Positions 13,981-39,952 of a stretch of 64,000 nucleotides of DNA are shown in pieces. Location of the stretch: contig OZ244065.1 in the NCBI GenBank assembly GCA_965215505.1, positions 1,824,001 through 1,888,000 of the forward strand. Reading direction: 5' to 3'. The position numbers and the translations under genes are program-made. Position 1 is the stretch's first letter; each line of letters opens with the position of its first letter. The notes under the pieces were generated by a model, which saw only the letters and a list, made by a program, of their open reading frames with translations, was not told the DNA's origin and made no database searches. The stretch comes from Capsulimonadaceae bacterium. Its GTDB lineage: Bacteria; Armatimonadota; Armatimonadia; Armatimonadales; Capsulimonadaceae.

Positions 13981-14013
13981 GGGCGCGGCTTCCTAGATGG
14001 GGAGGCCGCGCCC
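13981..14013. terminator. Bidirectional terminator-like hairpin
   Basis: GGGCGCGGCTTCC...GGAGGCCGCGCCC between convergent genes. Confidence 0.6.
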
Positions 14014-14018
14014 GTTTC

Positions 14019-14675: not shown

Positions 14676-14721
14676 GCCCTACCATTCGGCCATGTTGCCG
14701 TGTTGTCCTGCGCGCGTGCTG

Positions 14722-15159
14722 TCAGGGCTGGTGCCAGCCGAACTGGACAGCGGTTTTCCGGCGGTGGCACCGGACGCAACGGACCTCACACTTGGCGATC
14801 TCCAGGAGGATTGTCTTCCAAGGAAAACCCGACGACACTAACTGCGAGACGGCACCACGTTTCACGCCACGAACATGGTCAAAATCGAGCATCAGAAGTT
14901 CCGTGTCACCACAGTGTACACAGGGATGGTCCATGAGGTAAACGTTCAGGCGGTCGCGGTTCATGCGGACATACTGCCTACGCCTCATGTTCACATTCAC
15001 GATATGCTTCTCTTTGTTCTCATGATACCAGCGGTTCTGATACTCACGTTTGCACTCACGGCAATGAGTCTGCAAACCGTCGCGCTTGGCATTATTGATG
15101 CCGAAGTCCGAAGAAGCCTTGACGACGCCGCACCCGCAGCACTTCTTTTCCATCAGCAT
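14722..15159 (-). CDS. Zn-finger HNH endonuclease-like protein
   Basis: CxxC...CRECK N-terminal domain; PCVHCG...LDFDHV...EIAKCEVRCVRCH; visibly lower GC. Confidence 0.75.
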   Translation of the reverse strand: MLMEKKCCGCGVVKASSDFGINNAKRDGLQTHCRECKREYQNRWYHENKEKHIVNVNMRRRQYVRMNRDRLNVYLMDHPCVHCGDTELLMLDFDHVRGVKRGAVSQLVSSGFPWKTILLEIAKCEVRCVRCHRRKTAVQFGWHQP

Positions 15160-15183
15160 TCGTACCCTCCTTAGCCCGACTGA

Positions 15184-15226
15184 AAAAGAAAACGGTCCTT
15201 GCTCGATGTACGAACAAAGACCGTTT
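15184..15226 (-). terminator. Terminator-like hairpin after tRNA-Lys
   Basis: AAACGGTC...GACCGTTT stem followed by TCTTTTT on the minus strand. Confidence 0.55.
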
Positions 15227-15229
15227 GAT

Positions 15230-15306
15230 TGGTGCCCCCAGTAAGGGTCGAACTTACGACAACCCACTTAAGAGGCGGGTGCTCTAACCAACTGAGCTAT
15301 GGAGGC
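15230..15306 (-). tRNA. tRNA-Lys(CTT)
   Basis: GCCTCCATAGCTCAGTTGGTTAGAGCACCCGCCT-CTT-AAGTGGG...GTTCGACCC..GGGGGCACCA cloverleaf with CCA. Confidence 0.93.
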
Positions 15307-15435
15307 GATGCCTGTCTTCCTGTGAGGAACAAGCCTATTATACTCAGGGGAAGGAGAAAAATCAAGCCGTTTGCAGATAATCAGTGTAAGATTTTTCGGT
15401 GTTCGCGCGGCAAGCGGCGCGGGTAAGATGTGCCA

Positions 15436-24424: not shown

Positions 24425-26899
24425 ATGACATCACCGAAAAACATGTCCGCCATGTGTTCCCCAGATCCGTTCCCCGGTTTGCTTCCCCTCAGCCGCCGCC
24501 GGTTTTTGCGGGCGGCCGGCCTCGCCGGGGTCGGGCTGGCATTGGGGTCGCGCGGCAAGTCTGCCACGGCGCGCGCCTCCACAGGGCCGGTTGAAAACGC
24601 CGTTCCCGAGGCGGCGCGGCCGCTGCCGCTGTCCGCTGTCCGCCTCACGGGCGGCCCCCTCAAGCACGCCCAGGAACTGGACGCCAAATACCTGCTGGCG
24701 CTGGAACCGGACCGCATGATGGCCTATTTCCGCAAGCGCGCCGGGTTGAAACCGAAGGCGGCGGGGTATGGCGGCTGGGACGGCGACGGCCGCAACCTGA
24801 CGGGCCATATCGCGGGCCACTACCTGTCCGCCGTCAGCCTGATGTATGCCGCGACGGGGGACCCGCGCTTCAAGCAGCGGGCCGATCACCTGGTCTCGGA
24901 GATGAGGCTGGTCCAGGATAGAAACGGGAATGGCTACCTCGGCGCATTGGAAGGCGCCGAGGAGAGCTTCGCGCGTTTGTCCCAGGGTCAGATCCGCTCC
25001 GGGGGCTTCGATCTGAACGGTCTTTGGTCGCCCTGGTATGTCGAGCACAAGATATTCGCCGGGCTGCGCGACGCGCACCGCCACACCGGGAACCCGGACG
25101 CGCTGGGCGTGGAAACGAGGTTCGCCGGCTGGGTGGAAACGGTCCTCTCCCCGCTCGATGCGGACCAGGACCAGAAGATGCTGAACACCGAGTTCGGCGG
25201 CATGGGCGAGGTGCTGGCCGACCTCTATGCCGACACCGGCGACCGGCGCTGGCTGGCCCTCTCGGACCGGTTCGAACACCACGCCGTTCTGGACCCGCTC
25301 GCGCGCGGGGAGTATCGCCTCGGCGGCCTGCACGCGAACACCCAGGTCCCCAAGCTGATCGGCTCGGCGGCCCGTCATGCCTACACCGGCAACCAGGCCG
25401 ACGGCGCGGCCGCCCGCTTCTTCTGGGATGCGGTCGTCTCCCACCAGACCTTCGCGACGGGCGGCCACGGCAAGGATGAGTATTTCGGGCCAGCGGACCA
25501 ACTCAGCAGCCGCGTCAACGGGCGCACCGACGAGAGCTGCAACGTCTACAACATGCTCAAGCTGACGCGCACGCTGTTCGCGCTGCGGCCCGACATCAAG
25601 TATGCGGAGTTCCAGGAGCGGGCCTTGTTCAACCATGTACTCGGCTCGATGGATCCGGAAGACGGACGCACCTGCTACATGGTCCCGGTGGGCCAGGGAG
25701 TCCAGCATGAGTATCAGGACATGTTTGAGAGCTTTACCTGCTGCGTCGGCACGGGTATGGAGAGCCACGCGCTGCACGGGCACGGCATCTACTACGAGGA
25801 CGGCCACCGCCTCTGGGTCAACCTGTACGCGCCTTCCCATGCCGAGTGGGAAGCCGCCGGGGTGAGCCTCGCGGTCACCACCACATTCCCGGAAGGCGAT
25901 CATGCCGCGCTGGCCATGACGCTCAGATCACCCCACGCCTTCACGCTGGCCTTGCGCCGCCCCTCCTGGGCGGGGGCGGGCTTCGCGGTGAGGGTCAACG
26001 GGAAACCCGTCCGGGCCGTGTCCAAGCCGGGTTCCTATGTGGAGATCAAGCGCACCTGGAAGACCGGCGACATCGTGGCGCTGACTCTGCCGAAAACACT
26101 CCACGCGGAGCCGCTGCCGGATAACCCGCGCCGCGTCGCCTTGCTCTGGGGGCCGCTGGTGCTGGCGGGCGATCTCGGGCCGGAACGGGAGGAGGCCGCC
26201 GGCAGCCCGGTAGCCCCCGTGTTCGTGGCGGCGGAGCAGCCGGTCGCCGCGTGGCTCAAACCGGTCGCCGCCCAGCCGGGCCGGTTCCGCAGCGACGGGG
26301 TCGGGCGGGACATCACCGTCTCCGGCCACGTCTCCGATGTGGACTTCGTGCCGTTCTACCGCCTGCACCGGCGCGCTTATGCCGCGTATTGGGACCTGTA
26401 CACACCTCCGGAGTGGGAAGAAAAGGCCGCCTCCATCGCCGCCGCCCAGGAGAAGCTGCGCCGGCTGGAGGCCGCCACCGTCGGCTACGCCCAGCCGGGG
26501 GAGATGCAGCCGGAGCGCAATTTCCACCAGCAGGGGGCGGACACCACGCCGGACCGCGTGCTGGGGCGCGCGGGCCGCCGGGGGAAGAACTGGTTCTCCT
26601 TTGACCTGCCGGTGGATCCGGCGTACCCGATGACTCTGATCGTGACATACAGCACGCAGGAGTTCCGGGAGCGGACGTTCGATATCCAGGCCGACGGCAC
26701 CCGGATCGGGCAGCAGAAGATCGAGCGCAGCGGCCCCGGAAGCGCCTCCGCAGAATTCTTCGATGTCCTCTATCCTCTGCCGGCGAGCCTCGTGTCAGGC
26801 AAATCCACAGTGACCGTGCGCTTCCAGGCGACCGGCGGCAATGAGATCGCCGCCGTGTTCGGCCTCCGCATGGTCCGTGCGGATGCGCCTCTCGGTTAG
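24425..26899 (+). CDS. Tat-exported GH127/GH146 beta-L-arabinofuranosidase-like protein
   Basis: SRRRFL Tat signal; GHIAGHYLSA, EFGGM, HANTQVPK, ESCNVYNM, TCCVGTG (Zn/Cys catalytic motifs). Confidence 0.88.
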   Translation: MTSPKNMSAMCSPDPFPGLLPLSRRRFLRAAGLAGVGLALGSRGKSATARASTGPVENAVPEAARPLPLSAVRLTGGPLKHAQELDAKYLLALEPDRMMAYFRKRAGLKPKAAGYGGWDGDGRNLTGHIAGHYLSAVSLMYAATGDPRFKQRADHLVSEMRLVQDRNGNGYLGALEGAEESFARLSQGQIRSGGFDLNGLWSPWYVEHKIFAGLRDAHRHTGNPDALGVETRFAGWVETVLSPLDADQDQKMLNTEFGGMGEVLADLYADTGDRRWLALSDRFEHHAVLDPLARGEYRLGGLHANTQVPKLIGSAARHAYTGNQADGAAARFFWDAVVSHQTFATGGHGKDEYFGPADQLSSRVNGRTDESCNVYNMLKLTRTLFALRPDIKYAEFQERALFNHVLGSMDPEDGRTCYMVPVGQGVQHEYQDMFESFTCCVGTGMESHALHGHGIYYEDGHRLWVNLYAPSHAEWEAAGVSLAVTTTFPEGDHAALAMTLRSPHAFTLALRRPSWAGAGFAVRVNGKPVRAVSKPGSYVEIKRTWKTGDIVALTLPKTLHAEPLPDNPRRVALLWGPLVLAGDLGPEREEAAGSPVAPVFVAAEQPVAAWLKPVAAQPGRFRSDGVGRDITVSGHVSDVDFVPFYRLHRRAYAAYWDLYTPPEWEEKAASIAAAQEKLRRLEAATVGYAQPGEMQPERNFHQQGADTTPDRVLGRAGRRGKNWFSFDLPVDPAYPMTLIVTYSTQEFRERTFDIQADGTRIGQQKIERSGPGSASAEFFDVLYPLPASLVSGKSTVTVRFQATGGNEIAAVFGLRMVRADAPLG

Positions 26900-26908
26900 G
26901 AGGCGGCG

Positions 26909-27910
26909 ATGCCCGGAAAGACGATCACGCCGGTCTGGACGCCCGCGCCGGAGCGCCGCCTTAAAGACATGGTCTCCCCCAGCGCCTCCTGGGACGCCGA
27001 CCGGCTGCGCGAGACTTTGCTTGAGGTCGGGATGGAGGCACTGACCACACAGGAGCCGTCACGGCTGATGCTTCCGCCCCCGAAGACGTTCGCGCCCAAG
27101 CGCATCGTGAACCGGAAGGACCTGAACCGCCACCGCTACATCGAGATCGGGATCGTCACCCAGGGCGAGATGTCTCTCTGGTGGGAGGGCGCTTTTTCCC
27201 GATGCCCCGCCGGTTCCGTCTTCATCATCCAGCCAGGGATGCGCTACATGTCGCATGCGGAACTTCCGGAGGAAAACCCGCGCCCCCATTCCGTGGTCTG
27301 GCTGGCGCTGCACCGAGGGTGCGCCATTGTCCACAGATGCTCGGTGCGGAACAGGGACCACTACCTGAGCGAGTATTACTCGCTTGTTGATGTGCAGCTA
27401 ACGGCTTATGCCCGCAGCATCGCCCAGGAGATCGCCGAACGGCCCTCCCACTTTGAAACCGTGGTCCGCGGCAGCCTCCTCTGCCTGTTCACCCTGCTGC
27501 TGCGCGCCCCCATCTACAGCATCTCGCGCCACAGCGGGGCGGGCCGCGAAACGAAAGAAGCCGGGGCGAACCCGTTCAGCGACCGCGTCAGATCCTACCT
27601 GCTTTCGCATTACCACCGCCCTCTGACCCTGGCACAGATCGCCCGCTCGATCGAATGCAGTCCGGCACACCTGTGCCGGCACTTCCGCGAACTCACCGGC
27701 CAGACGCCGTTTCAGTATCTCCGGGCCGTGCGCCTGGAGGCGGCGAAGGCGCTCCTCCTCTCGGAAGTACCGATCGCGCGGATCGCGGAGATGGTGGGCT
27801 TTGACGACCCGCTTTATTTCAGCAAGGTGTTCTCCAGTCAGGTCGGCCAATCCCCGCAGAGCTACCGCGCCGCCTGCCGGGCGTCGGACGTGAGGCCGGC
27901 ATCCCCCTGA
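26909..27910 (+). CDS. AraC-family transcriptional regulator
   Basis: Cupin-like N-terminus; LA.IA....SPAHL.R.F and IAEMVGFDDPLYFSKVF....G.SP..YR HTH. Confidence 0.9.
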   Translation: MPGKTITPVWTPAPERRLKDMVSPSASWDADRLRETLLEVGMEALTTQEPSRLMLPPPKTFAPKRIVNRKDLNRHRYIEIGIVTQGEMSLWWEGAFSRCPAGSVFIIQPGMRYMSHAELPEENPRPHSVVWLALHRGCAIVHRCSVRNRDHYLSEYYSLVDVQLTAYARSIAQEIAERPSHFETVVRGSLLCLFTLLLRAPIYSISRHSGAGRETKEAGANPFSDRVRSYLLSHYHRPLTLAQIARSIECSPAHLCRHFRELTGQTPFQYLRAVRLEAAKALLLSEVPIARIAEMVGFDDPLYFSKVFSSQVGQSPQSYRAACRASDVRPASP

Positions 27911-27935
27911 TCTCATGTCAAAACTTCATCTCATG

Positions 27936-27998
27936 TCAATGATTTCCATGTCTGGAACATGCATTCCATTGCCGCCGTGGGCCGACTGCGGACATAAT
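27936..27998 (+). promoter_or_regulatory. Putative AraC operator/promoter of the hydroxyproline operon
   Basis: TCAATGATTTCCAT..ATTCCAT at 20-bp spacing, then TTGCCG-N18-CATAAT. Confidence 0.6.
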
Positions 27999-28132
27999 AC
28001 ACTCGCCCTTCGGGTTCACTGCCGAGCCTTTCTTCCCCTTCTCGTTTCCCACGTTGCCACTGACGGCGGCGCGGAGGGCCTGCGCTTCCAGCCTTATCCG
28101 TTCCGGCATCCGTGTCACCGAGAGAGACAAAA

Positions 28133-29287
28133 ATGAAACCTACCTGGAAGGGCGTCTTCCCCGCCGTCACCACACAGCTCCATCGGGACCAGTCCCTCGA
28201 CCTGGAGGCCACCGCGCGCCACATCGGGGTGCTGCTTGACTCCGGGATCGCCGGCCTCATCATGCTCGGCTCGCTCGGCGAGAACATCGCCCCGGAGCCG
28301 GACGAGAAGCGGAGCGTCATGCGGATGGCGGTCGAGGCGGTGAGCGGCCGCGTGCCGGTCCTGAGCGGCGTGTCGGAGTGCAGCACGGCCGCCGCCTGCC
28401 GCTACGCGCGTGACATGGAACGGCTCGGGGCGGACGGCCTGATGGTGCTGCCCGCCATGGTCTACAAGGCCGACGCGGACGAGACCATGGAACACTTTCG
28501 GGCGGTCGCCGGCTCCAGCGGCCTCCCGATCATCTGCTATAACAACCCCCTCGCTTATGGCGTGGACATCACGCCGGAGATGTTCGCGCAGATGGCCGAT
28601 GAGGAGAAATTCGTTGCGGTCAAAGAGTCGTCGGGCAACGTGCGGCGCATCACCGACCTCATCAACCTCGTCGGCGACCGCTACACGCTCTTCACCGGCG
28701 TGGACGACCTCACCCTGGAAAGCATCATGCTCGGGGCCGAGGGCTGGATCGCCGGGGTCGGGCTGGCCTTCCCGAAAGAGAACCAGTATCTGTGGGACCT
28801 GTGGGACCTGGCGGCGGGCGGGCAGTGGGAAAAGGCGCGCGAGGTCTATCGGTGGTACATGCCGCTGCTGCACCTGGACATCCCGGTCAAGTTCGTGCAG
28901 TACATCAAGCTGCTGCTCCAGGAGTGCGGCCTGGGGGCCGAATGGGTGCGCGCGCCGCGCCTGTCCCTTCAAGGCGCGGAGCGCGTAGCCGCCCTGAAGA
29001 TCATCCGGCAGGGCATCGAGACCCGGCCGATGATCCCGGCGGGGCATCTGCCGGCCCCCCCTACTGACGGACAGGGGGTGGGATTTTGGAGACCATGCAA
29101 AAAGTCCGTGTCCTCGACTCACACACGGGAGGCGAGCCGACCCGCGTCATCCTCTCCGGCGGCCCAGACCTCGGGGGCGGCACGGCTGAGCAGCAGAGGG
29201 CCGTCTTCCGCAGCCGCTTCGACTCGTTCCGGACCGCAGTCGTCGCCGAACCGCGCGGCTCGGATGTCCTGGTCGGCGCGCTCCTGA
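28133..29287 (+). CDS. lhpC: DapA-family enzyme, likely 1-pyrroline-4-hydroxy-2-carboxylate deaminase (natural end probably ~29067; reads through as assembled)
   Basis: WKGVFPAVTT, GSLGE, YNNP, KESSG, GWIAG; position in a Hyp operon. Confidence 0.8.
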   Translation: MKPTWKGVFPAVTTQLHRDQSLDLEATARHIGVLLDSGIAGLIMLGSLGENIAPEPDEKRSVMRMAVEAVSGRVPVLSGVSECSTAAACRYARDMERLGADGLMVLPAMVYKADADETMEHFRAVAGSSGLPIICYNNPLAYGVDITPEMFAQMADEEKFVAVKESSGNVRRITDLINLVGDRYTLFTGVDDLTLESIMLGAEGWIAGVGLAFPKENQYLWDLWDLAAGGQWEKAREVYRWYMPLLHLDIPVKFVQYIKLLLQECGLGAEWVRAPRLSLQGAERVAALKIIRQGIETRPMIPAGHLPAPPTDGQGVGFWRPCKKSVSSTHTREASRPASSSPAAQTSGAARLSSRGPSSAAASTRSGPQSSPNRAARMSWSARS

Positions 29288-30033
29288 GCAGGCCGGCGGA
29301 CCCTTCCTGCGTCTCGGGCATGATCTTCTTCAATGGCGTGGGCTTCCTCGGCATGTGCGGCCACGGCACCATCGGCGTCGTCGCGGCGCTGGCGTTTCTC
29401 GGCAGGATCGGGCCGGGCGAGTTCCGATTCGAGACTCCGGTCGGGGTGGTGACGGCACACCTGCACGAGTCGGGGGCTGTCTCCGTCAGGAACATCCCCA
29501 GCTTTAGGCTTGCCAAAGACGTGCGGGTCGCCGTGGAAGGCCACGGCAGCATCACCGGCGACATCGCGTGGGGCGGCAACTGGTTTTTCCTGGCCCACGA
29601 CCACGGGCAGGAACTGGTTCCCGCCAACGTGGAGGCCCTGACCGACCTGACCCGCCGCATCCGGCGGGCGCTGGCCGCGCAGGGGATCACCGGGCGCGGG
29701 GGCGCGGAGATAGACCACATCGAGCTGTCCGCGCCCTCGGACACGCCGGGGGCGGACGGCCGCAATTTCGTCCTGTGTCCGGGGAACGCCTATGACCGGT
29801 CGCCCTGCGGCACCGGCACCAGCGCCAAGCTGGCCTGCCTGTTCGCCGACGGCCGGCTGAAGGAGGGGCAGGTGTGGCGTCAGGAAGGCATCCTCGGCGG
29901 CCAATTTGAAGGGACGGTCGCGGTGGACGGCGACCGGCTGATCCCGACCATCACGGGCCGCGCCTATGTCACGGCGGACACGACGCTGCTGTTCGATCCC
30001 ACCGACCCGCTCCGAGAAGGGATACGCCGATGA
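29095..30033 (+). CDS. lhpA: 4-hydroxyproline 2-epimerase (proline racemase family)
   Basis: DSHTGGEPTR, EPRGSD, MCGHGTIG, DRSPCGTGTSA (two catalytic Cys). Confidence 0.88.
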   Translation: MQKVRVLDSHTGGEPTRVILSGGPDLGGGTAEQQRAVFRSRFDSFRTAVVAEPRGSDVLVGALLSRPADPSCVSGMIFFNGVGFLGMCGHGTIGVVAALAFLGRIGPGEFRFETPVGVVTAHLHESGAVSVRNIPSFRLAKDVRVAVEGHGSITGDIAWGGNWFFLAHDHGQELVPANVEALTDLTRRIRRALAAQGITGRGGAEIDHIELSAPSDTPGADGRNFVLCPGNAYDRSPCGTGTSAKLACLFADGRLKEGQVWRQEGILGGQFEGTVAVDGDRLIPTITGRAYVTADTTLLFDPTDPLREGIRR

Positions 30034-31289
30034 CCAGTCCGAAACACATCCTCATCGTCGGCGGCGGCGGCGTCGGCCTGTGCGCCGCCTACTACGCGAT
30101 GCAGAAGGGGCACCAGGTCACGGTCGTCGAGCGCGGCGGCCCGGCGCACGACGCCTGCTCCCTGGGCAATGCCGGGATGATCGTCCCCAGCCATTTCGTC
30201 CCGCTGGCCGCGCCCGGCATGGTCGGCTACGGCCTGCGGATGATGCTCCACCCCGAAAGCCCGTTCTACATCCGGCCCCGCCTGGACCTCGGCCTGATCC
30301 GCTGGGGCCTCCTCTTCGCGCGCTCGGCCACTGCGGCCCATGTGGCCCGCTCGGCACCCCTGCTGCGCGACCTGAGCCTGGCGAGCCGGGGCTGCTATGA
30401 GGACCTCGCCGCCCGGTTCGGCGACGTCTTCGGGCTGACCAAGCGGGGCCTGCTGATGCTCTGCAAGTCAGAACACTCCCTGCACGAAGAAGCGCGGATG
30501 GCGGCGGCAGCCTGCGCGCTGGGCCTGCCCGCCGATGTTTTATCACCCTCCGAGGCCGCCCGGCTCGATCCGGGCGTGCGGATGGACATCGTGGGCGCGG
30601 TCCACTACCCGCAGGACTGCCACTTCTTCCCCCAGGTCTTCATGGCGCGACTGACGGAGGCCCTGGAAGCGGGCGGGGCGCAGTTCTGCTGGGAAACCGA
30701 GGTGACCGGCTGGCGCGCGGACCGGGGCCGGATCATCGCCGTGGAAACCTGCCAGGGCGACAAGCAGGCCGACGAATATGTGCTGGCCGGCGGCTCCTGG
30801 TCACCGCAGACGGTGCGCGGGCTGGGCCTCCGGCTGCCCACCCAGGCGGGAAAGGGCTACAGCCTTTCTCTGCCCGAGCCACGGCAGATGCCGCGGCTCT
30901 GCTCGATCTTTACCGAAGCGCGCGTCGCCGCCACCCCGATGGGTTCCACCCTGCGTTTCGGCGGGACGATGGAGATCACCGGGCTGGACCCCTCGGTCAA
31001 TCGGTCGCGCGTGGACGGCATCCTCAAGGCGATCCCGCAGTATTTCCCGGACTTCAGGCCGGAGGACTTCCGGGACCTGCCCGTCTGGAGCGGCCTGCGG
31101 CCCTGCTCGCCCGACGGCCTGCCGTATGTGGGCCGCTTCGGGCGCTACCTCAATTTGTCGGCGGCCACCGGCCATGCGATGATGGGGATGAGCCTGGGGC
31201 CGGTGACGGGTAAACTGATCGCGGAGATCCTTTCGGGGGAAACCCCCGAGATCGCGCTCGATGCTCTCAGCCCGGACCGGTTCGGTTAA
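30030..31289 (+). CDS. FAD-dependent D-amino acid dehydrogenase, probable D-hydroxyproline dehydrogenase
   Basis: GGGGVG FAD motif, CSLGNAG, GKGYS, WSGLRPCSPDGLP, GHAMMG. Confidence 0.85.
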   Translation: MTSPKHILIVGGGGVGLCAAYYAMQKGHQVTVVERGGPAHDACSLGNAGMIVPSHFVPLAAPGMVGYGLRMMLHPESPFYIRPRLDLGLIRWGLLFARSATAAHVARSAPLLRDLSLASRGCYEDLAARFGDVFGLTKRGLLMLCKSEHSLHEEARMAAAACALGLPADVLSPSEAARLDPGVRMDIVGAVHYPQDCHFFPQVFMARLTEALEAGGAQFCWETEVTGWRADRGRIIAVETCQGDKQADEYVLAGGSWSPQTVRGLGLRLPTQAGKGYSLSLPEPRQMPRLCSIFTEARVAATPMGSTLRFGGTMEITGLDPSVNRSRVDGILKAIPQYFPDFRPEDFRDLPVWSGLRPCSPDGLPYVGRFGRYLNLSAATGHAMMGMSLGPVTGKLIAEILSGETPEIALDALSPDRFG

Positions 31290-31294
31290 AAAAC

Positions 31295-33919
31295 ATGGAA
31301 AAAAAGTTGTCACGACGGAAATTCTTGCAGCAGGCAACCGCGGTCGGCGGCGCGACCCTCCTCGCGGCCTCCGGGGCGGGCGCGGCCATCCCCGCCGCGC
31401 CGCCCAAAGGGAAAGGCGGCCCGCCGCGCCCCTACCGCCCGACGCGGGCCGAGATCAAAGAGGCATTCGAGCGCCAGAAGGAGTATGACGCCCGAGCGCG
31501 TCTGCCCGTTTATCAGGCCAAGATCACGCCGTACTGGTTTGCCGAGAATACCTCCTTCTGGTATCGGACTGATCTGCCCGAAGGACGCCGCCGGTTCGTC
31601 TGCGTTGATGCGGTGCGCGGGGTCCGCGCGGCGGCCTTCGACCACGCGCGGCTGGCCGCCGGCCTGTCCAAAGAAGCGGGGAAAGTCTACACCGCCGACC
31701 GTCTGCCGATCCAGGAGATCGAATACACGCCGCAAAAGCGGGCCATCCGGTTCGCCGCCGACGGGGCGGCCTGGCAGTGCGACCTGGCCTCCTATGTCTG
31801 TACGCGGATCGCCGCCACCGACCTGACGCCGGCGGCCGTCGTCACGGACCAAGGGCCGAGTGGCGGGGGCCGAAGATCGCGCAGAAACCGCGCGCCGGAG
31901 GACGCGGCACCCGTGTTCGTCAGGGACCATAACCTCTGGCTTCGCGCCCAAGGGGGCGGGGCCGAGACGGCGCTGACCCACGACGGCACGGCGGACCGGC
32001 CCTACGGCGAGATCGCTTTGTCGCCGGATGCCCGCACCTTCGCCGCCTACCGCATCGACCCCGCGCCGATCAAGCCGGTCTACATGGTCGAGTCCTCGCC
32101 CAAAGACGGCGGGACGCGCGGCGTGCTGCATCAGCACGAGTACGCCCAGCCCGGTGATCCGTTCCCCCTGTACGAGATGTGGGTGTTCGACACCGCCGCC
32201 GGGACCGGAGTCAAGGCGCAGGTCGAGAAGACCGCGACCGGCGGGACGCCCGAACTGCACTGGCGCAAAGACGGCCGGACGTTCCTGTTCGAGCGGGCGG
32301 ACCGGGGCCACCAGTTCTTCCAGATCGTTGAGATCACGGTCGGGACGGGCCGGGCCCGCATCATCGCGGACGAGCGCGCGAAGACGTTCATCAACACCAG
32401 CAACGTCTACACCTACTATGCGCGGGACGCCGCCGAGGTGCTGTACGCCTCCGAAATGGACGGATGGAGGCACCTCTACCGCTATGACGCCGTGCAGGGG
32501 AAGCTCGCGAACCAGGTGACGCGCGGGGACTGGGTGGTGCGGAGCGTGGACCGGGTGGACGAGGAGGCCGGGCAGGTCTGGTTCCAGGCCAGCGGCCGGA
32601 ACCCCGGCGAGGACCCGTACCTGCTCCATCACTACCGGGTCAATTTCGACGGCACCGGCCTGGTCGCGCTGACCGAAGGCGACGGCACCCACGCCGTGCA
32701 GTATTCGCCTGACAACGCCTACCTGATCGATTCGTACTCCCGCGCCGACCTGCCGCCCGTCCATGTGCTGCGGAAGGCGTCCGACGGCAGCCTGGTCTGT
32801 CCCCTGGAGGAAGCCGACGTGTCCGCGCCGCTGGCCGGCGGCTGGCGGTTCCCGGAAGTGTTCCGCGCCAAGGGCCGGGACGGGGCGACGGACATCTGGG
32901 GGATCGTCTTCCGGCCCGCCCACCTGGACCCGGCCAGGAAGTACCCAATCATCGAGAACATCTATGCTGGGCCGCAGGATTCGTTCGTCCGCAAGACCTT
33001 CGCCGTGCGCGACTCGATGCAGGCATTGGCCGACCTGGGCTTCATCGTCGTGCAGTGCGACGGCATGGGGACGCGCAACCGCTCCAAGGCCTTCCACGAT
33101 GTCTGCTGGCACGACCTCAAAGACGCCGGCTTCCCCGACCGGATCGCCTGGATCAAGGCCCTGGCCGCGAAGCACCCCTACTGCGACACGGACCGGGTGG
33201 GCGTGTACGGCACCTCGGCGGGCGGGCAGAACTCCACCGGCGCGCTGCTGTTCCACCCGGAGTTCTATAAAGTCGGCGTCTCGTCGTGCGGCTGCCACGA
33301 CAACCGCATTGACAAGCAGTGGTGGAACGAGCAGTGGATGGGCTACCCGGTCGGGCCGTGGTATGACGACAGCTCGAACATCGTCCACGCGGAGAACCTG
33401 CGCGGCAAGCTGCTCCTGCTGGTGGGCGAGCTGGACACGAACGTGCCGCCCGAGTCCACATTGCGGCTGACCGGGGCATTGCAGAAGGCGGGCAAGGATT
33501 ACGACCTGATCGTCAGCATCGGGCAGGACCACGGCAGCGGCGGCCCCTACGGCGAACGTCGCCGGCGCGACTATTTCGTCCGGCACCTGCTCGGGGTCGA
33601 GCCGCCCGACCGCAACGTGCCGGCCCCGCCCCCCGCGCCGGTCGTGCTGACGCCCCGGTCGGCCGGCGAGGAGAGCTTGGCGCAGGCCGAGGGCGGGGCG
33701 GACACCAGCATACGGTTCCACAACGGGACGAGCCATCCGGCCCTGCTTTTCTGGCTGCCCGGCGACGGCACGCGCAAGTCCTACGGGGAGATCGCGCCTG
33801 GGGAGGATCGCGAGGTCCACACCTATAGCAGCCATTCCTGGCTCGTGACCGCCAAAGACGGCCCGCCGCTGGCGGTGTTCGTCGGCGAGGAGCATCCCGG
33901 CATCGCCGAGATTCGCTGA
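31295..33919 (+). CDS. Tat-exported S9B (DPP IV-like) prolyl peptidase with C-terminal VHL-like beta domain
   Basis: SRRKFL Tat signal; beta-propeller; YAGPQ, GTSAGG nucleophile, ELDTNV, H; tail IRFHN...FWL..DG....Y....PG.....HTY..H.W. Confidence 0.88.
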   Translation: MEKKLSRRKFLQQATAVGGATLLAASGAGAAIPAAPPKGKGGPPRPYRPTRAEIKEAFERQKEYDARARLPVYQAKITPYWFAENTSFWYRTDLPEGRRRFVCVDAVRGVRAAAFDHARLAAGLSKEAGKVYTADRLPIQEIEYTPQKRAIRFAADGAAWQCDLASYVCTRIAATDLTPAAVVTDQGPSGGGRRSRRNRAPEDAAPVFVRDHNLWLRAQGGGAETALTHDGTADRPYGEIALSPDARTFAAYRIDPAPIKPVYMVESSPKDGGTRGVLHQHEYAQPGDPFPLYEMWVFDTAAGTGVKAQVEKTATGGTPELHWRKDGRTFLFERADRGHQFFQIVEITVGTGRARIIADERAKTFINTSNVYTYYARDAAEVLYASEMDGWRHLYRYDAVQGKLANQVTRGDWVVRSVDRVDEEAGQVWFQASGRNPGEDPYLLHHYRVNFDGTGLVALTEGDGTHAVQYSPDNAYLIDSYSRADLPPVHVLRKASDGSLVCPLEEADVSAPLAGGWRFPEVFRAKGRDGATDIWGIVFRPAHLDPARKYPIIENIYAGPQDSFVRKTFAVRDSMQALADLGFIVVQCDGMGTRNRSKAFHDVCWHDLKDAGFPDRIAWIKALAAKHPYCDTDRVGVYGTSAGGQNSTGALLFHPEFYKVGVSSCGCHDNRIDKQWWNEQWMGYPVGPWYDDSSNIVHAENLRGKLLLLVGELDTNVPPESTLRLTGALQKAGKDYDLIVSIGQDHGSGGPYGERRRRDYFVRHLLGVEPPDRNVPAPPPAPVVLTPRSAGEESLAQAEGGADTSIRFHNGTSHPALLFWLPGDGTRKSYGEIAPGEDREVHTYSSHSWLVTAKDGPPLAVFVGEEHPGIAEIR

Positions 33920-33945
33920 CCCATGATCGCGGAGGGACGAGCGGT

Positions 33946-35466
33946 TTGACTCTGAGCGGCCACAACTATCTCGGGCGGAGCGCTTCGGCGATTGGGACGG
34001 TGACATTCACGGGATTCGCCGCCGCGACCGGCGAGCCGCTGGACGTCCTGTTCCACGAGGCGACGCCGCAGGAGCTGGACCGCGCCTTGACGCTGGCCGC
34101 CGGGGCGGCGGGGACCTGCCGTGCCCTCCCCGCCGCCAAGCGGGCCGAATTCCTGGAGGGCATCGCCGAAGAACTCCTGACCCTCGGCGACCCGTTCATC
34201 CGACAGGCGCACCTGGAAAGCGGCCTGCCGGAAGCGCGGCTCACCGGCGAGCGGATGCGGACGGTGAGCCAGCTCCGGCTGTTCGCCTCGGTCGTGCGCG
34301 AGGGTTCCTGGGTGGACGCCCGCATCGACCGGGCGCTGCCGGACCGGACGCCCGCGCCCCGGCCCGACCTGCGCCGGATGCTCGTCCCGCTGGGTCCGGT
34401 GGGCGTCTTCGGGGCGAGCAACTTCCCCTTCGCGTTTTCCGTGGCGGGCGGGGACACCGCCTCCGCCCTGGCCGCCGGCTGCCCGGTCGTCGTCAAGGCG
34501 CATCCGGCCCACCCCGGCACCTCCGAGATGGCGGCCCGCGCGGTCCTGGCGGCGGCCTCGGCGGCGGGGATGCCGGACGGCGTCTTCTCGATGCTGCACG
34601 GCGGCGCGGAGGTCGGCCTGGCGTTGGTCCGGCACCCGCTGCTGCGGGCGGTCGGATTCACCGGGTCCCTGGCGGCCGGGCGGGCGCTGTTCGATGCCGC
34701 CGCCGCGCGGCCCTGCCCCATCCCCGTCCACGCCGAGATGGGCAGCATCAACCCGGTCTTCCTCCTGCCCGGCGCGCTCCGGGAGCGCGGCGCGGCCATC
34801 GCCGCCGGGCTGGCGCAGTCGGTGACGCTGGGCGTCGGGCAGTTCTGCACCAACCCCGGCCTGGTCGTCGGCCTCCGCAGTCAGGGCCTGTCCGATCTCC
34901 TGGGCGAGACGGCGCGGGCGGTCTCCCGGACGCCGCCGGGGGTCATGCTGACATCGGGAATCCGTGAAGCCTATCGGCAGGGGCGGACTCGGCTGGGAGA
35001 CACGGCGGGCGTCGAGCGGGAAACGGGGGCATCCGACGCGGCGGTGTTCTCGGCCCGCGCCGAAACCTTCCTCGCGACTCCGGCGCTGGCCGAGGAGGTC
35101 TTCGGGCCGTCCACCCTGGTCGTCGCCTGCGCCGACCCCGCCGAGATGGAAGCCGTCGCGCGCGGCCTGGACGGGCAGCTCACCGCGACGGTCCACGGCA
35201 CGCCCGACGACTTCCGAGAGTTCGCGGGCGTGATCGCCCTGCTGGAGACGAAAGCCGGGCGGCTGGTCTTCAACGGCTTCCCGACGGGCGTCGAAGTCAG
35301 CCCCGCCATGCAGCACGGCGGCCCCTACCCCGCCGCCACCGACGGCCGATCCACCTCGGTCGGCACGGCGGCCCTGCTGCGCTTCGCCCGCCCGGTCTGC
35401 TGGCAGGACGCGCCCCCCGTGCTGCTGCCCCCGGCGCTGCGCGACGACAACCCGGACAAGATATAG
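33946..35466 (+). CDS. Alpha-ketoglutaric semialdehyde dehydrogenase (NADP+)
   Basis: FGASNFPFAFSVAGGDTASAL, KAHPAHP, GFTGS, EMGSINP, GQFCTNPG, EVFGP, HGGPYPA. Confidence 0.88.
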   Translation: MTLSGHNYLGRSASAIGTVTFTGFAAATGEPLDVLFHEATPQELDRALTLAAGAAGTCRALPAAKRAEFLEGIAEELLTLGDPFIRQAHLESGLPEARLTGERMRTVSQLRLFASVVREGSWVDARIDRALPDRTPAPRPDLRRMLVPLGPVGVFGASNFPFAFSVAGGDTASALAAGCPVVVKAHPAHPGTSEMAARAVLAAASAAGMPDGVFSMLHGGAEVGLALVRHPLLRAVGFTGSLAAGRALFDAAAARPCPIPVHAEMGSINPVFLLPGALRERGAAIAAGLAQSVTLGVGQFCTNPGLVVGLRSQGLSDLLGETARAVSRTPPGVMLTSGIREAYRQGRTRLGDTAGVERETGASDAAVFSARAETFLATPALAEEVFGPSTLVVACADPAEMEAVARGLDGQLTATVHGTPDDFREFAGVIALLETKAGRLVFNGFPTGVEVSPAMQHGGPYPAATDGRSTSVGTAALLRFARPVCWQDAPPVLLPPALRDDNPDKI

Positions 35467-35504
35467 CGCCTGCTTGACGGCCGGTGGACCCAGGAGATGA
35501 TCCC

Positions 35505-37181
35505 ATGCCCCTCCCCTCCGACGGCTTAAGCCTGGACGACTTCGACGTCTCGCCTGACCGGATGCCGGCGCTGGTCGCCCGGTTCCGGGCGGACCATGAG
35601 TGCCTGAACCGACCGTCCAAGTCGCCGCTCTCCGCACAGCGCCGGGAGCGGATGCGGCAGTTTTTGGCGGGCTGGCGTCGGACGCTGGGACGGATCCCTT
35701 TTGACGACCTGACGCGCAGTGACCGGGCCGACTGGCTGCTGCTGCGCTCCTATCTGGACGCCGAGGCGCGGGAGCTGGATCAGGAGGAGCGCGGCTCCGC
35801 CGAGGCGGCGGCGCTGCTGCCCTTCGCGGACAGCCTGGTGGCGCTGGAAGAGCGACGCCTGGCGATGGAAGACGTGGACGCCGAAGCCGCCGCCGAGACC
35901 CTGGATCACGCCGCCGGCCAGGTACGGGAACTGTGTGCCGCGCTCAAAGACGACGCGCCGGCCCCGAGCGGCACGGCGGCGGCGGAAGCCGCGCGTGTCC
36001 TCGCCCGGCTTCAGCCGATGCTGAAATCCTGGTTCGAGTTCTATCACGACTACGACCCGCTGTTCACCTGGTGGGTCGAGAAGCCGTATGCCGGGCTGGA
36101 AAAACTGCTCGCCGACGCTGCCGCCCTCGTGCGCGAATCGGCCGCCGGGGCCGGGGAGGAGGCCGTCCTGGGCCACCCGATCGGGCGTGACGCACTCGTC
36201 GCCGAACTGCACTCGGCACAGATCTCCTACACGCCGGAGGAACTGATCGCGGCGGGACGCGCCGAGACGCAGTGGTGCCGCTCGGAACTCGGGCGGGCAG
36301 CGCAGGAGATGGGGCACGGCGACGACTGGCGGGCCGCCCTGGAGCAGGTCAAGCGCGGGCACGTCGCGCCGGGCCGGCAGCCGGCCCTGGTGCGCGACCT
36401 GGCGCGGGAGGCCATGGACTATGTCGAGGCCGAGGACCTGATCGCGGTGCCGCCGCTCGCCCGCGAGTGCTGGCGCATGGAGATGATGTCGCCGGAGCGG
36501 CAGAAGGTCAACCCGTTCTTCCTCGGCGGCGAGTCCATCATCATCTCGTTCCCGACGCAGGGGATGGAGCAGGCCCAAAAGCGGATGAGCCTCCGGGGCA
36601 ACAACCGCGCCTTCGCGCGGGCGACGGTCCAGCATGAGCTGATCCCCGGCCACCGGCTACAGGCGTTCTATCAGGAGCGCTGGCGGCCTTACCGCCGGCT
36701 GTTCTACACGCCGTTCTGGACGGAGGGCTGGACGCTGCACTGGGAAATGCTTTTGTGGGAGCGCGGCTTCGCGCGGACCCCGGAGGAGCGGATCGGGATG
36801 CTGTTCTGGCGTCAGCACCGCGGCGTGCGCGTCCTCTTCTCGCTGGGCTTCCACCTGGGCCAGATGACGGCGGGGGAGTGTGTCGAGATGCTGGTGGACG
36901 AGGCGGGGCACGAGCGCGACAACGCCGTGGCCGAGGTGCGCCGCTCCCTGGAAGGCGACTACGGCCCCCTCTACCAGTGCGCCTACCTGATCGGCGGCCT
37001 CCAGATGCATGCGCTCTATCAGGAGATGGTCGGCGGGGGCCGCCTCAGCGCCCGCGACTTCCACGAGGCGGTGTTGCGCGAGAACTGCATGCCCCTCGCG
37101 ACGCTGCGCGCCCTGCTGACCGGCGGGCCGCTGGGCCACGATTTCCGGCCCGAGTGGCGCTTCTTGCGGCCCGCCAAGTGA
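35505..37181 (+). CDS. DUF885-family protein (putative metallopeptidase)
   Basis: YDPLFTWW, HELIPGH, WTEGW.LHWE, YQCAYLIGGL. Confidence 0.8.
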   Translation: MPLPSDGLSLDDFDVSPDRMPALVARFRADHECLNRPSKSPLSAQRRERMRQFLAGWRRTLGRIPFDDLTRSDRADWLLLRSYLDAEARELDQEERGSAEAAALLPFADSLVALEERRLAMEDVDAEAAAETLDHAAGQVRELCAALKDDAPAPSGTAAAEAARVLARLQPMLKSWFEFYHDYDPLFTWWVEKPYAGLEKLLADAAALVRESAAGAGEEAVLGHPIGRDALVAELHSAQISYTPEELIAAGRAETQWCRSELGRAAQEMGHGDDWRAALEQVKRGHVAPGRQPALVRDLAREAMDYVEAEDLIAVPPLARECWRMEMMSPERQKVNPFFLGGESIIISFPTQGMEQAQKRMSLRGNNRAFARATVQHELIPGHRLQAFYQERWRPYRRLFYTPFWTEGWTLHWEMLLWERGFARTPEERIGMLFWRQHRGVRVLFSLGFHLGQMTAGECVEMLVDEAGHERDNAVAEVRRSLEGDYGPLYQCAYLIGGLQMHALYQEMVGGGRLSARDFHEAVLRENCMPLATLRALLTGGPLGHDFRPEWRFLRPAK

Positions 37182-37226
37182 GGCTGAAAGGCGGGCCGGA
37201 AGCGAGTGTTCACTTATTGCAGCAGG

Positions 37227-37288
37227 TCAATATATTCCATATTTATATCTTGAATTCCTTTGTTTTGCGCGCGTGGCTGCGGCATAAT
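37227..37288 (+). promoter_or_regulatory. Putative AraC operator/promoter of the DUF1559-DUF5695 unit
   Basis: TCAATATATTCCAT..ATTCCTT at 20-bp spacing, then TTGTTT-N17-CATAAT. Confidence 0.6.
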
Positions 37289-37537
37289 ACAGTTGCTCCG
37301 GCGGCCAGCCTGTGGCAGTCTTCCTCCTCGCGAGCGCGTGGCCTGCGCGGTTCATTGGTGAGCCTCTTACTCTTCCGAATCTCCTGCGCCCCTTCGGCAG
37401 CGGCGCAGACATCGCACGGTCGTCACCGTCCGCGAGTCCGACGACGGCTCATTCTCCAGCCCTTCTTCTATCGTCAGTATCATCGGTGATGCGGCCCGCT
37501 CAAGATTTCTGTCGTTTCTACTCAGAAAGGGAACCCC

Positions 37538-38333
37538 ATGGTACAGACAGACACGCCCGCCCCCCCAGAAGCGTCAGGGCTTCACCTTGATCGAACTGCT
37601 CGTCGTCATCGCGATTCTCGCGGCGATACTTTTCCCGGTCTTCCAGAAGGTCCGCGAGAACGCCCGCCGCACGTCTTGTCTCAGCAACCTCAAGCAGCTC
37701 GGGCTGGGCTTCACCCAGTATGTCCAGGACGGCGACGAGAAGTATCCGGGCCTCTCCGCCGCTGATCCGAACTTTGTTGGGCAGAGCGGCTGGGCAAGCC
37801 AGATCTATCCCTATGTGAAGAGCGTCGGCGTCTATACCTGTCCCGATGACGGCACGGTCGGCACCCCGCAGAAGACCTACAAGACTCCGCAGAAGGTGTC
37901 TTATGATGTGAACTACTACATCTATGTCGTGGACTACGGGCAATATGCGGAGGGCATATCCAATGCGACATACATAGACAACACGAACGGCGCGGCGCTG
38001 TCTCAGTTCAACGCGCCTTCAAGCACCTTCCTCTTATACGAAATCAGTGATCCGACGCCGCAGCAATACACCGGCAACAACGGGGACCCTTCCATCACCC
38101 CAATCACTGCCGCCAGTGCCTCGGGAGGATCGAGCGGCGACTACGGCTGGCTTCCTACTCGTCACGACTCGACTGCCGAGTATGCCTCCAATTACCTGGC
38201 AGCGGATGGTCATGTGAAATTCCTGAAAGCGTCCAGCGTTTCCTTCGGGACCGGCACCCCCGGCAATAGAAACGGCACGCGCACCGATAACCGGGGGTCG
38301 AAGGGGCAGGCGATCACGATCCGATTGCAGTGA
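37538..38333 (+). CDS. DUF1559 prepilin-type N-terminal cleavage/methylation protein with H-X9-DG motif (frameshift in C7 tract near the start)
   Basis: [47 protein letters not shown]......NY..ADGHVK; ATG 37538 is out of frame by one base. Confidence 0.82.
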
Positions 38334-38482
38334 GGCCAGCCCTCATGTACATCAGCCGCGCGATTGCGGCCTGCTGAGACGGGGGGAGCAGTCTGATTCG
38401 ATCCCTCTCCCCCTATTCGATGGTCGCTGTTCCATCGGGAGGTAATCTCCCGACTAATAGATCGCCTAACCCTGGAGTTTCT

Positions 38483-39952
38483 ATGTCAAACCCCATCAAA
38501 CCACCCGTATTCATCGCCATCGTGGTGGCGGCCGTTCTTCTCGTCGGCCTGATCGGCTACAAACTCGTCGCGGCCGGCCACCCGCCCCTGCGAACAGATG
38601 CCGCTTCCCAAGAGTTGTATGCTTCATACGCAAAAGCGCGGGCGCAAAAGCTGGCAGGCGGCAAGGGGATGCCGCCGGCCCGACACACCCCTGAAACACT
38701 CCTGAGAACCATCACGATGAAGCACGGCACCCCGGTACTGGCGGCGGTCACATTCCTGCTCGGAGCGCTGGCCGCCGGGGGAGACGGCGGCACACCTCTC
38801 CCCCTGCTGCGGGCGAATTACCCGAAGATCGTCGCCATCGCCCCGCCCGGAGACTGTTTTTTCACCAAAATGCTCGATTTCCACGGCATCCCGATTAAAG
38901 CAAGCTCGGTCGTCTCAGATGAGGCCCTCGATGCGGCCTATGACCGGCTGGCACTCGAACTGGCACACCTCCCCGTAGTGACCGTCAACCTCGTGGCGGC
39001 GGGCGCGCAGCTCCAGATCATCGGCAAAGATCAGGTCACTTCGGACCTGCCGGAGTTCCGCGCCCTCAAGGGCAGACCCCTTCCGAAGTACAACGGCCTG
39101 ACCATTGGCCAAAGGACGCGCGGCATGGGCGGTCTGGAAACGTCCTGCGGGGAGGAGCACCTGCTGAAATTGGACAAAGACCGCTACCGGGGACGCGACA
39201 TCTGCCTGCACGAGTTCGCCCACTGCATCCGAGATCACGGCATACAGGCGGAGATCGTCGCCCGCGCCTGCCCCCCATCTCCGGCTCGGTATGCCTCCTA
39301 CCTCAGCGCCTGGGCATTGGTCAATTCCGGCACGCCGGAGTCGGGCTACGGCTACTGGTACCCCGGCCTGGAAAACGACGGTGGGGCGGGGGGCGGGTTC
39401 GAGCCGGCCCCGACCGGGACGACGTGGCTGGGCCAGCCACACCACCGCGGCTCCTGGTATTACTCCTGCGAGGAGAATCCCGGCTACTGCGGCGCATTGC
39501 GGACCGCCGCCACCATTCTGACGGATGACCCCATCTTCGGGCGATTCTGCTTCGGGGGCGACTGGCGCAGGACGACGGCGGGCCTGGAAGTCATCCCGAA
39601 GGACGGGCTGCGGAAGCGGTTCCATGCCCTGATCGGCGGCAGGCTGCACCTGGTCTCGGAAACGGATCGCTTTCCCGCCGGACGTCCCATCATCGTCCGG
39701 GAAACCCTCTCGGAGATTCGCTTCTCTCTGAAAAGCGATAACCCGGCACCGCACACCGCCGCCGTCCGCCTGTCGGGGCTGCCGCCGGGCGGATATGTCG
39801 TCAGTGCCGCCGACGGGAGCGGACTGACGGCGGAACAGGGCAAAACAAAGATCATCGCGGGCCAGGAAACCCTCCTGGGGCTGCCGATGGCCGGCAACGG
39901 CAGCCGGACGTTCCTGCTGAAGCGGCAGACAAGAGAAAGAGTTCCAAGTTGA
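38483..39952 (+). pseudogene. Fused/deleted gene remnants: small membrane protein + HExxH zincin N-terminal part + DUF5695-like C-terminal part
   Basis: TM peptide at 38483; second signal peptide MKHG at 38717; CGEE.LL....DRY.G.DIC.HEFAH then abrupt switch (~39275) to SAWALVNSG..WYPG.ENDG..WYYSCE. Confidence 0.6.

Follow-up and report, generated by a model that had tools for sequence, protein, structure and literature searches.

A VHL-like domain on a bacterial proline-specific peptidase within a hydroxyproline gene cluster is a candidate reader of peptide-borne hydroxyproline

The von Hippel-Lindau protein pVHL is among the most studied human proteins, a component of oxygen sensing, a factor in kidney cancer and the handle of most proteolysis-targeting chimera (PROTAC) drugs. 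In bacteria, secreted hydrolases are known to carry substrate-targeting modules, such as carbohydrate-binding modules and the collagen-binding domains of clostridial collagenases, and the described clusters for trans-4-hydroxy-L-proline (Hyp) take up the free amino acid. Two catabolic routes are relevant here: an epimerase route, for which we take the lhp/hyp genes of Pseudomonas and Sinorhizobium as reference (Watanabe et al. 2012), and a glycyl-radical route through HypD (Levin et al. 2017). We describe an S9 peptidase gene of a Capsulimonadaceae bacterium (31295..33919, + strand, 874 amino acids (aa)), similar to dipeptidyl peptidase IV (DPP-IV) and prolyl tripeptidyl peptidase, which ends in a VHL-like domain and lies in a Hyp gene cluster; all coordinates refer to the window, the 64,000-nucleotide stretch of contig OZ244065.1 (assembly GCA_965215505.1, positions 1,824,001 to 1,888,000) that was analysed. 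The VHL-like tail is most likely a detachable binding module for peptide-borne 4-hydroxyproline, a reading to which we assign a probability of roughly 65%.

The window resembles the described epimerase-route clusters in that epimerase, DAO, DHDPS and aldehyde dehydrogenase families stand in one operon, and the HypD route has its counterpart at locus L080 of our survey, which holds a HypD over its NCBIfam cut-off as well as the HypD activase. What the present clusters add to the described ones is predicted exported, proline-specific peptidases, GH127 and the VHL-like domain. According to PMC4454575 and PMC10850190, the GH127 enzyme HypBA1 of Bifidobacterium longum acts on Hyp-linked arabinose, and the former describes the removal of arabinose from Hyp in extensins by GH127 enzymes. 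A GH127 catalytic domain, for which an arabinosidase role is predicted from sequence, heads the window cluster, and a second GH127 occurs in the L080 operon. Because GH127 strips arabinose from Hyp, the cluster reads as a locus that dismantles Hyp-rich glycoproteins or peptides and burns the Hyp.

Homology of the tail to the beta domain of pVHL was examined by several independent routes. Pfam, phmmer and AlphaFold2 together delimit a seven-stranded domain of about 75 residues at residues 803-874 (33701..33916, +), following a Pro-rich linker (residues 754-802, 33554..33700); a preliminary description of this DNA had given the tail as 33701-33919, with a translation that we reproduce exactly from the open reading frame (ORF), and these coordinates span the folded domain plus the stop codon. 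Pfam family PF01847, the VHL beta domain, matched residues 806-851 with 23.4 bits in the whole protein and 28.2 bits (E = 2 × 10−6) for the 92-aa tail by itself, relative to a cut-off of 21. A phmmer search of the tail against 177,635 distinct PDB sequences retrieved pVHL chains only (E ~3 × 10−4), the next entry being a monobody at E = 0.84. As had been counted by eye, the alignment is gapless with 16 identities, here over the 48 positions that pair tail residues 22-69 with residues 72-119 of a 213-residue pVHL chain. Six pocket positions proposed in the preliminary description fall within it: W820 (33752-33754), Y830 (33782-33784), H842 (33818-33820), T843 (33821-33823), H847 (33833-33835) and W849 (33839-33841) correspond to pVHL positions 88, 98, 110, 111, 115 and 117, with five identities and one Ser-to-Thr exchange, and are invariant or nearly so among 12 peptidase orthologues. 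In pVHL, W88, Y98, H110, S111, H115 and W117 build the Hyp site, with Ser111 and His115 bonding the 4-hydroxyl, Tyr98 bonding the carbonyl and His110 acting via its backbone carbonyl, as set out in PMC9528729.

The predicted structure leads to the same family. An AlphaFold2 model of the tail, computed template-free on an alignment of 34 sequences, contained seven strands and reached a mean predicted local distance difference test (pLDDT) of 89.9 and a predicted template modelling score (pTM) of 0.81, with the linker part (tail residues 1-20) the least confident (block pLDDT 81 and 67). Every match listed by Foldseek against the PDB was pVHL, with root-mean-square deviations (rmsd) of 1.4-1.9 Å, and 75 matches had E ≤ 1 × 10−3 (best 1vcb_C, E = 2.3 × 10−6, TMq 0.76, rmsd 1.9 Å). 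A search with VIA, which is independent of Foldseek, over 48,161 representative chains placed pVHL first at Z = 11.7 and 11.3 (rmsd 1.8-1.9 Å, 82 residues), followed by one chain at Z = 7.5 and the remainder at 6.3 or below. With pVHL this far ahead, the likeness is specific to pVHL and is not that of beta-sandwiches in general, and the C-terminal ~75 residues are genuinely homologous to the beta domain of pVHL. A chance or convergent resemblance could point to the small number of identities (16/48) and the modest single-sequence E-value against the PDB (3 × 10−4), but Pfam scores relatives of the domain up to E = 1.7 × 10−36 and a tandem protein at 346 bits, only pVHL exceeds Z = 11 against the template-free model, and the sequence alignment runs without a gap over 48 residues; this explanation has practically no chance of being right, and we rule it out on the combined strength of Pfam, phmmer, the PF01847 matches of relatives, Foldseek and the independent fold search.

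Compared with the beta domain of human pVHL (PF01847; PDB 1VCB, 1LM8, 4AJY; the Hyp reader of the CRL2-VHL ubiquitin ligase), the window domain has the same seven-strand sandwich and the same pocket residues with Thr in place of S111, whereas it has no alpha domain or elongin-binding box, is fused to a hydrolase instead of serving a ubiquitin ligase, is predicted to be exported and sits in a catabolic rather than a signalling setting. The protein ends at residue 874, on its last strand, so that no elongin C-binding box or alpha domain follows; no other VHL-related Pfam family was matched at E ≤ 1, and the structural match spans residues 61-152 of the pVHL chain only. A pVHL orthologue with a ubiquitin-ligase adaptor role was therefore considered and ruled out, there being no alpha domain and export of the protein being predicted.

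We next asked which positions are conserved in the wider bacterial family. A HMMER pass over 1.84 billion representatives gave 1168 clusters at E ≤ 1 × 10−3 and 122 at E ≤ 1 × 10−10, and PF01847 was also matched by 125 of the 127 relatives scanned with Pfam (those of at most 730 aa among the best 150 representative-library matches), 24 of which carry DPPIV_N. Across 303 domain instances in 148 proteins, N78 is kept in 100%, W88 in 96%, G93 in 91%, Thr or Ser at position 111 in 99%, H115 in 93%, W117 in 95% and Y98 in 76% (86% when one domain per protein is counted), compared with 23% for H110. Since the most conserved positions match the Hyp site of pVHL, the conserved core of the bacterial family is the pVHL Hyp pocket, and H110, the sole pocket residue that acts by its backbone, is the one free to vary.

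This pattern bears on a reading in which the domain is a general reader of Pro-rich or extended peptides, blind to the 4-hydroxyl, that tethers the peptidase to any Pro-rich substrate. Such a reader would suit a peptidase family that is proline-specific by homology and whose VHL-bearing genes lie in their majority outside Hyp operons, as well as the two relatives fused to a GYF-type domain and to an extensin-like stretch, respectively. Near-universal retention of the hydroxyl-bonding residues (Ser/Thr111 99%, His115 93% over the 303 domains) is difficult to account for, however, unless a polar atom of the ligand lies at that place, and the domain also serves as the putative sensor part of a regulator beside the Hyp-specific HypD; we judge hydroxyl-blind binding unlikely, though it deserves to be kept in view.

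Beyond DPPIV_N, a few of the scanned relatives carry TIR, CAP, ricin-type lectin, astacin, matrixin, reprolysin, collagenase collagen-binding, GYF or patatin domains, and tandem arrays of 2-12 VHL-like copies occur in other proteins. The giant proteins P0014-P0018 (1712-2000 aa) have 9-12 tandem domains, followed in P0014 by a long region rich in hydrophobic helices. One protein with four copies, P0081, comes from the annelid Owenia fusiformis, so the family has members other than pVHL in animals too. A word-indexed search for longer relatives gave the same peptidase family only.

If the domain reads Hyp, it might be expected to keep company with Hyp genes. Among 401 genomes of the phylum (the orthologue sources name Armatimonadota), PF01847 was found in 99, nearly always as a single match in a frame of 800-900 codons, and in 0 of 14 control genomes; the Pro_racemase family, to which the window epimerase belongs, was found in 117. 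Both were present in 67 genomes, VHL only in 32, epimerase only in 50 and neither in 252, which puts a Pro_racemase-family gene in 67/99 VHL-positive and 50/302 VHL-negative genomes. The VHL and epimerase genes lie at most 10 kb apart in 17 of the 99 genomes (11 genera, 6 families; one more at 15 kb), compared with ~0.3 genomes expected from random placement in 5-Mb genomes, and because many assemblies are fragmented the 17 is a lower bound.

Gene neighbourhoods were read at 60 phylum loci, taken from 104 matches outside the window genome with a distance of at least ~7 kb from the contig start as the sole criterion, and at a further 80 loci of metagenome-assembled genomes found with the motif H[TS]FAGHVW, which are mostly from Verrucomicrobiota, Planctomycetota and Armatimonadota and biased to the N-inserted peptidase type described below. 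A peptidase core was present at the VHL match in 56 of the 60 phylum loci and in 77 of the 80 metagenomic ones. An epimerase lay within 10 kb in 8 phylum loci, mostly together with a dehydrogenase and a DHDPS-type gene, with DUF885 in 4 and GH127 in 2; the metagenomic set had an epimerase in 6, and several of its loci place DUF5695 between the Hyp genes and the peptidase. The association with Hyp and GH127 loci that had been anticipated in the preliminary description is borne out, as a minority pattern.

How the domain came to be attached is also informative. A tree of 55 peptidase cores, built with the VHL stretch removed, separates with 100% support 40 peptidases in which the domain is inserted near the N-terminus from a clade of 15, made up of 13 with a C-terminal domain, the window protein included, and two without any (L174, 752 aa; L192, 746 aa) that nest in this clade, where their sister is the group holding the window protein; both clades have members linked to Hyp operons. 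As an accessory, the VHL domain has been retained at two attachment points and dropped at least once, just as a tethered binding module would be. The same history speaks to the idea that the domain has no ligand of its own and is a structural, lid or oligomerisation element of the S9 family. That idea draws on the near-constant pairing of domain and peptidase in the phylum (56/60 loci) and on the fact that each peptidase clade keeps its own domain position, and it runs against the two insertion points, the dispensability of the domain in L174 and L192, its unrelated partners elsewhere (HExxH domain, ArsR helix-turn-helix, TIR, patatin, ankyrin), the tandem arrays and the identity of the top conserved positions with ligand-pocket residues of pVHL (PMC9528729). 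We hold it to be very unlikely.

Functionally, a tethered Hyp-binding module would resemble carbohydrate-binding modules and collagen-binding domains in being a small beta-sandwich on a flexible linker that is movable, sometimes dispensable and tandem in other proteins. It differs from them in its proposed ligand, a single modified amino acid within a peptide that the pVHL-type pocket would read, and has no sequence or specific fold relation to them (Z ≤ 5.5). Binding of sugar-decorated Hyp (Hyp-O-arabinosides or -galactosides) or of a glycan, in the manner of a carbohydrate-binding module, nevertheless finds some footing in the GH127, DUF5695 and GH27 genes of the same clusters, in the resemblance of the beta-sandwich to many sugar-binding modules at Z ~5 and in the ricin-type lectin domains on two relatives. 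Set against this are the Z of 11.7 for pVHL versus at most 5.5 for sugar-binding modules and the fact that the residues kept are those of the Hyp pocket, whose floor, given a geometry like that of pVHL, would clash with a sugar on the 4-oxygen. We consider sugar binding quite unlikely and retain the peptide-borne Hyp as the preferred ligand.

Fusions to other partners extend the link to Hyp genes beyond the S9 family. In two proteins, L058:9139-10200 (+, 353 aa) and L079:8338-9510 (+, 390 aa), a HExxH peptidase-like domain is followed by a C-terminal VHL-like domain. This HExxH domain belongs to no Pfam or NCBIfam family, and the same domain recurs in the window, in ORF 38420-39952 (48-51% identity), and in the Hyp clusters L070, L174, L181, L132, L152 and L143.

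A third arrangement joins an ArsR/SmtB helix-turn-helix to a VHL-like domain (L080:9722-10534, −, 270 aa), which scores 24.6 bits on PF01847, aligns with the peptidase-type domains by hhalign (99.0%, E = 2.8 × 10−18) and keeps N, W, G, Y, T, H and W. The ArsR-VHL gene comes directly after HypD, a trans-4-hydroxy-L-proline dehydratase by NF043068 (1245.5 bits versus an equivalog cut-off of 1100), in an operon (L080:4914-19970) that also encodes the HypD radical-SAM activase, an M24 Xaa-Pro peptidase, GH127, DUF5695, GH27 with NPCBM and three DUF1559 pseudopilin-like proteins. Locus L080 thus combines the VHL domain with another Hyp pathway and another partner protein, and its ArsR-VHL protein is a candidate Hyp-sensing transcription factor. 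HypD was sought in 160 loci and the window and found in L080 only, and two metagenome scans for more ArsR-VHL loci gave either no match or ArsR genes that had neither a VHL part nor a HypD.

Taken together, three lines of comparative evidence back a Hyp-reading function for the VHL-like tail, and the interpretation first offered from the window draws support, in part, from Pfam, fold and locus association, the computational checks proposed with it, all of which favoured it. Several observations weigh against it. Most peptidase-VHL genes lie away from Hyp genes, in 52/60 phylum loci and 74/80 cross-phyla loci, and the 115 immediate neighbours at 58 phylum loci (all but L071 and L079, which had no VHL gene call) showed no common gene partner, the most frequent being PDZ/S41, 4-5 times, and DAO, 4 times. 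The odds ratio that follows from the genome counts, 10.6, overstates independence because genomes of one phylum are kin, and its p-value carries no weight. Both VHL-less peptidases, L174 and L192, sit in Hyp operons, so that the Hyp link may belong first to the peptidase, and the family may itself be part of Hyp-peptide catabolism. Retention of the pocket was judged by gapless alignment and fold match, and the peptide-flanking contacts of pVHL, Phe91, Pro86 and Pro99, are Gly, Leu and Gly in the window domain, so that its preference for peptide context must differ from that of pVHL. The ArsR-VHL architecture comprises six clusters, with gene context read for L080 only, and its AlphaFold2 model (6 sequences) had a pLDDT of 47.6, with the VHL part at 30-50 and unusable, so that the homology of this VHL part rests on Pfam and hhalign.

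The data establish the homology and fold of the domain, the conservation of its pocket positions, an intact catalytic triad in the peptidase and the association with Hyp genes; from these we infer that the ligand is Hyp, that the domain targets the enzyme to substrate and that the natural polymer is a Hyp-rich glycoprotein or collagen. In the mechanism that we propose, Hyp-rich polymers (plant or algal hydroxyproline-rich glycoproteins, or collagen) would lose Hyp-linked arabinose to GH127, perhaps with a contribution from DUF5695, and the de-arabinosylated chains would be cut by endopeptidases. The VHL-like pocket would then grip Hyp-bearing fragments, with Thr843 and His847 directed at the 4-hydroxyl, Tyr830 at the carbonyl and Trp820 and Trp849 as walls, so that the tethered proline-specific exopeptidase meets its substrate at a higher local concentration. 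Freed Hyp or small Hyp peptides would pass to the enzymes encoded nearby, namely the epimerase, the D-Hyp dehydrogenase, the deaminase and the semialdehyde dehydrogenase, and in the ArsR-VHL regulator the VHL-like domain would sense Hyp or a small Hyp peptide. A broader proposal, which we put forward tentatively and at less than even odds, is that bacteria have long and widely used the VHL beta domain to sense Hyp, with one pocket deployed on two catalytically unrelated kinds of exported peptidase, in tandem arrays and as the ligand-binding portion of ArsR-VHL, a one-component transcription factor turning on the HypD pathway, with animal pVHL a late recruit and Hyp recognition older than HIF signalling.

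Bacterial PF01847 domains are already in databases. In the literature searched, PMC9002001, an in-silico paper, calls one bacterial VHL-domain protein a tumour suppressor, and PMC7736814 states the role of bacterial VHL relatives as unknown; we found no link between bacterial VHL domains and Hyp catabolism in this search, which did not extend to subscription journals. New here are counts across the phylum, a history of two clades and two attachment positions that includes loss, the joining of HExxH and VHL domains with its connection to Hyp clusters, and the ArsR-VHL gene beside HypD. The peptidase-VHL finding suggests that bacteria use an old pocket to locate hydroxyproline-rich food. If the Hyp link is true, bacterial VHL domains gain a testable function, and the harvest by bacteria of Hyp-rich plant and algal cell-wall glycoproteins and of collagen, a large and poorly charted pool of carbon and nitrogen, comes into view. 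The origin of the animal Hyp reader would become answerable, and stable single-domain Hyp binders could serve as tools, with the bacterial domains as a natural binder library. The L080 ArsR-VHL protein would be the first candidate Hyp-sensing transcription factor of its kind.

The peptidase that carries the window domain has 11 orthologues of 853-880 aa. Its first 31 residues (31295..31387, +), read by eye, form a twin-arginine (Tat-type) leader (S-R-R-K-F-L, a hydrophobic stretch, then A-G-A-A) whose SRRxFL motif is kept in 10 of 12 aligned orthologues and which indicates export, to the periplasm or farther. A DPP-IV-type beta-propeller (residues 191-488, 31865..32758, +; PF00930, DPPIV_N, E = 1.1 × 10−43) precedes the S9 alpha/beta-hydrolase domain (residues 572-753, 33008..33553, +; PF00326, Peptidase_S9, E = 1 × 10−44). 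The predicted catalytic triad of Ser641 (33215-33217), Asp714 (33434-33436) and His746 (33530-33532) aligns with the GWSYGG Ser, the Asp and the His of chain 2d5l_A and is invariant across 12 sequences; propeller, hydrolase domain and a catalytic GxSxGG Ser with Asp and His together mark the S9 type. The closest PDB peptidases, spanning residues ~190-755, are 2d5l_A, 2z3w_A and 2dcm_A (E ~2 × 10−50), chains of the Porphyromonas gingivalis prolyl tripeptidyl aminopeptidase, and 2ecf_A (E = 2 × 10−46), the DPP IV of Stenotrophomonas maltophilia, for which cleavage after 4-hydroxyproline has been reported. The window protein is like these bacterial S9B peptidases in propeller, alpha/beta-hydrolase domain and aligned Ser-Asp-His triad, and exceeds them by an N-terminal region of ~130 residues and the C-terminal VHL module. 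By homology it is predicted to be proline-specific. The stretch of the DPP-IV double-Glu amine anchor aligns with gaps, so that a di- or tripeptidyl cleavage rule is not readable from sequence, and the only Glu nearby, E239, varies among orthologues.

The surrounding cluster (24425-42723) consists of eleven co-directional genes on the + strand with short gaps or 4-base overlaps, and no transporter gene was seen within it. The genes beyond it are unrelated: those on one side encode an ABC-F protein and a kinase, those on the other, which lie on the opposite strand, a formamidase and an ABC importer. It begins with a GH127 beta-L-arabinofuranosidase-like gene with DUF6805 (24425..26899; PF07944, E = 4.6 × 10−110), whose sole NCBIfam match, to aceric acid hydrolase, is far under the cut-off (78 of 950 bits), and an AraC-family regulator (26909..27910; HTH_18, HTH_AraC). 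A DHDPS-family gene follows (28112..29287; PF00701, residues 13-299); the Hyp-pathway enzyme pyrroline-4-hydroxy-2-carboxylate deaminase is a member of this family. The 4-hydroxyproline epimerase-like gene (29086..30033; Pro_racemase, E = 5 × 10−94) falls under both NCBIfam cut-offs (NF052296, 420.7 bits versus 450; NF010577, 402 versus 442), as does the FAD-dependent D-amino-acid (D-Hyp) dehydrogenase-like gene (30030..31289; DAO, E = 1.3 × 10−65; NF001933, 261 bits, below cut-off). Downstream of the peptidase is an aldehyde dehydrogenase (33946..35466; Aldedh), assigned by context only as the alpha-ketoglutarate semialdehyde dehydrogenase; the proposed placement of the peptidase between this enzyme and the D-Hyp dehydrogenase holds at family level. 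The DAO, DHDPS and Aldedh families are contiguous in the cluster, all below specific NCBIfam cut-offs, and the set recurs together elsewhere, with homologues of the aldehyde dehydrogenase adjoining Hyp genes in L070, L075, L076, L081, L137, L173-L176, L181, L191 and L192. The remaining genes encode a DUF885 protein (35484..37181; PF05960), possibly a peptidase, whose PDB relatives are uncharacterised lipoproteins and whose family also occurs near peptidase-VHL genes in L033, L036, L041 and L070; a DUF1559 pseudopilin-like protein (37587..38333; PF07596); an ORF with a HExxH (HEFAH) peptidase-like middle and a DUF5695-like C-terminal end of ~175 residues (38420..39952); and a full-length DUF5695 protein (39949..42723; PF18951, 1291.7 bits).

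Some of these genes have unusual structures. The DHDPS-family ORF lacks a stop codon ahead of the epimerase gene and overruns the 29086 start in another frame by ~200 bases, its last ~90 codons being a low-complexity tail of Arg, Ser, Pro and Ala; tblastn covers 96-99% of this long ORF in L173-L175 and L189, where there may be a like read-through. ORF 38420-39952 (510 codons) has two leader-like hydrophobic stretches and then the HExxH domain to about residue 290, but lacks the downstream portion that L058 and L079 have, and its last ~175 residues share 45% identity with the C-terminal end of the L080 DUF5695-like protein; it is probably a chimeric deletion remnant ahead of the intact DUF5695 gene. 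DUF5695 itself (~900 aa, no solved relative by sequence) adjoins Hyp, GH127 and peptidase-VHL genes in Armatimonadota and Verrucomicrobiota, recurring beside Hyp and peptidase-VHL genes in L063, L118, L132, L137 and L152, and is a candidate for an enzyme acting on the glycans of Hyp-rich glycoproteins.

The nearest intact relative of the window operon, L070 (G184, 5216-17800), combines four putative peptidases with Hyp genes in the order DUF885, aldehyde dehydrogenase, M24 Xaa-Pro peptidase, S9-VHL, D-Hyp dehydrogenase, epimerase, HExxH, DHDPS-type and DUF1559. Among 17 other genomes of the window genus, a Pro_racemase-family gene was found in none and the VHL domain in 3, and the intact cluster is particular to the window genome within its genus. 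At L055 (G112, ~9566-12900), short stretches on either side of the peptidase-VHL gene resemble the D-Hyp dehydrogenase (covering 23% of its length) and the aldehyde dehydrogenase (22%), and the locus looks like a decayed operon. The window genome has a second VHL match, in a 94-codon ORF (L002:1441-1725, −; G000:C1 near 5159341-5159436) in which part of the N-terminus of a paralogous peptidase runs straight into the C-terminal half of a VHL domain and which is an internal-deletion remnant of a second peptidase-VHL gene.

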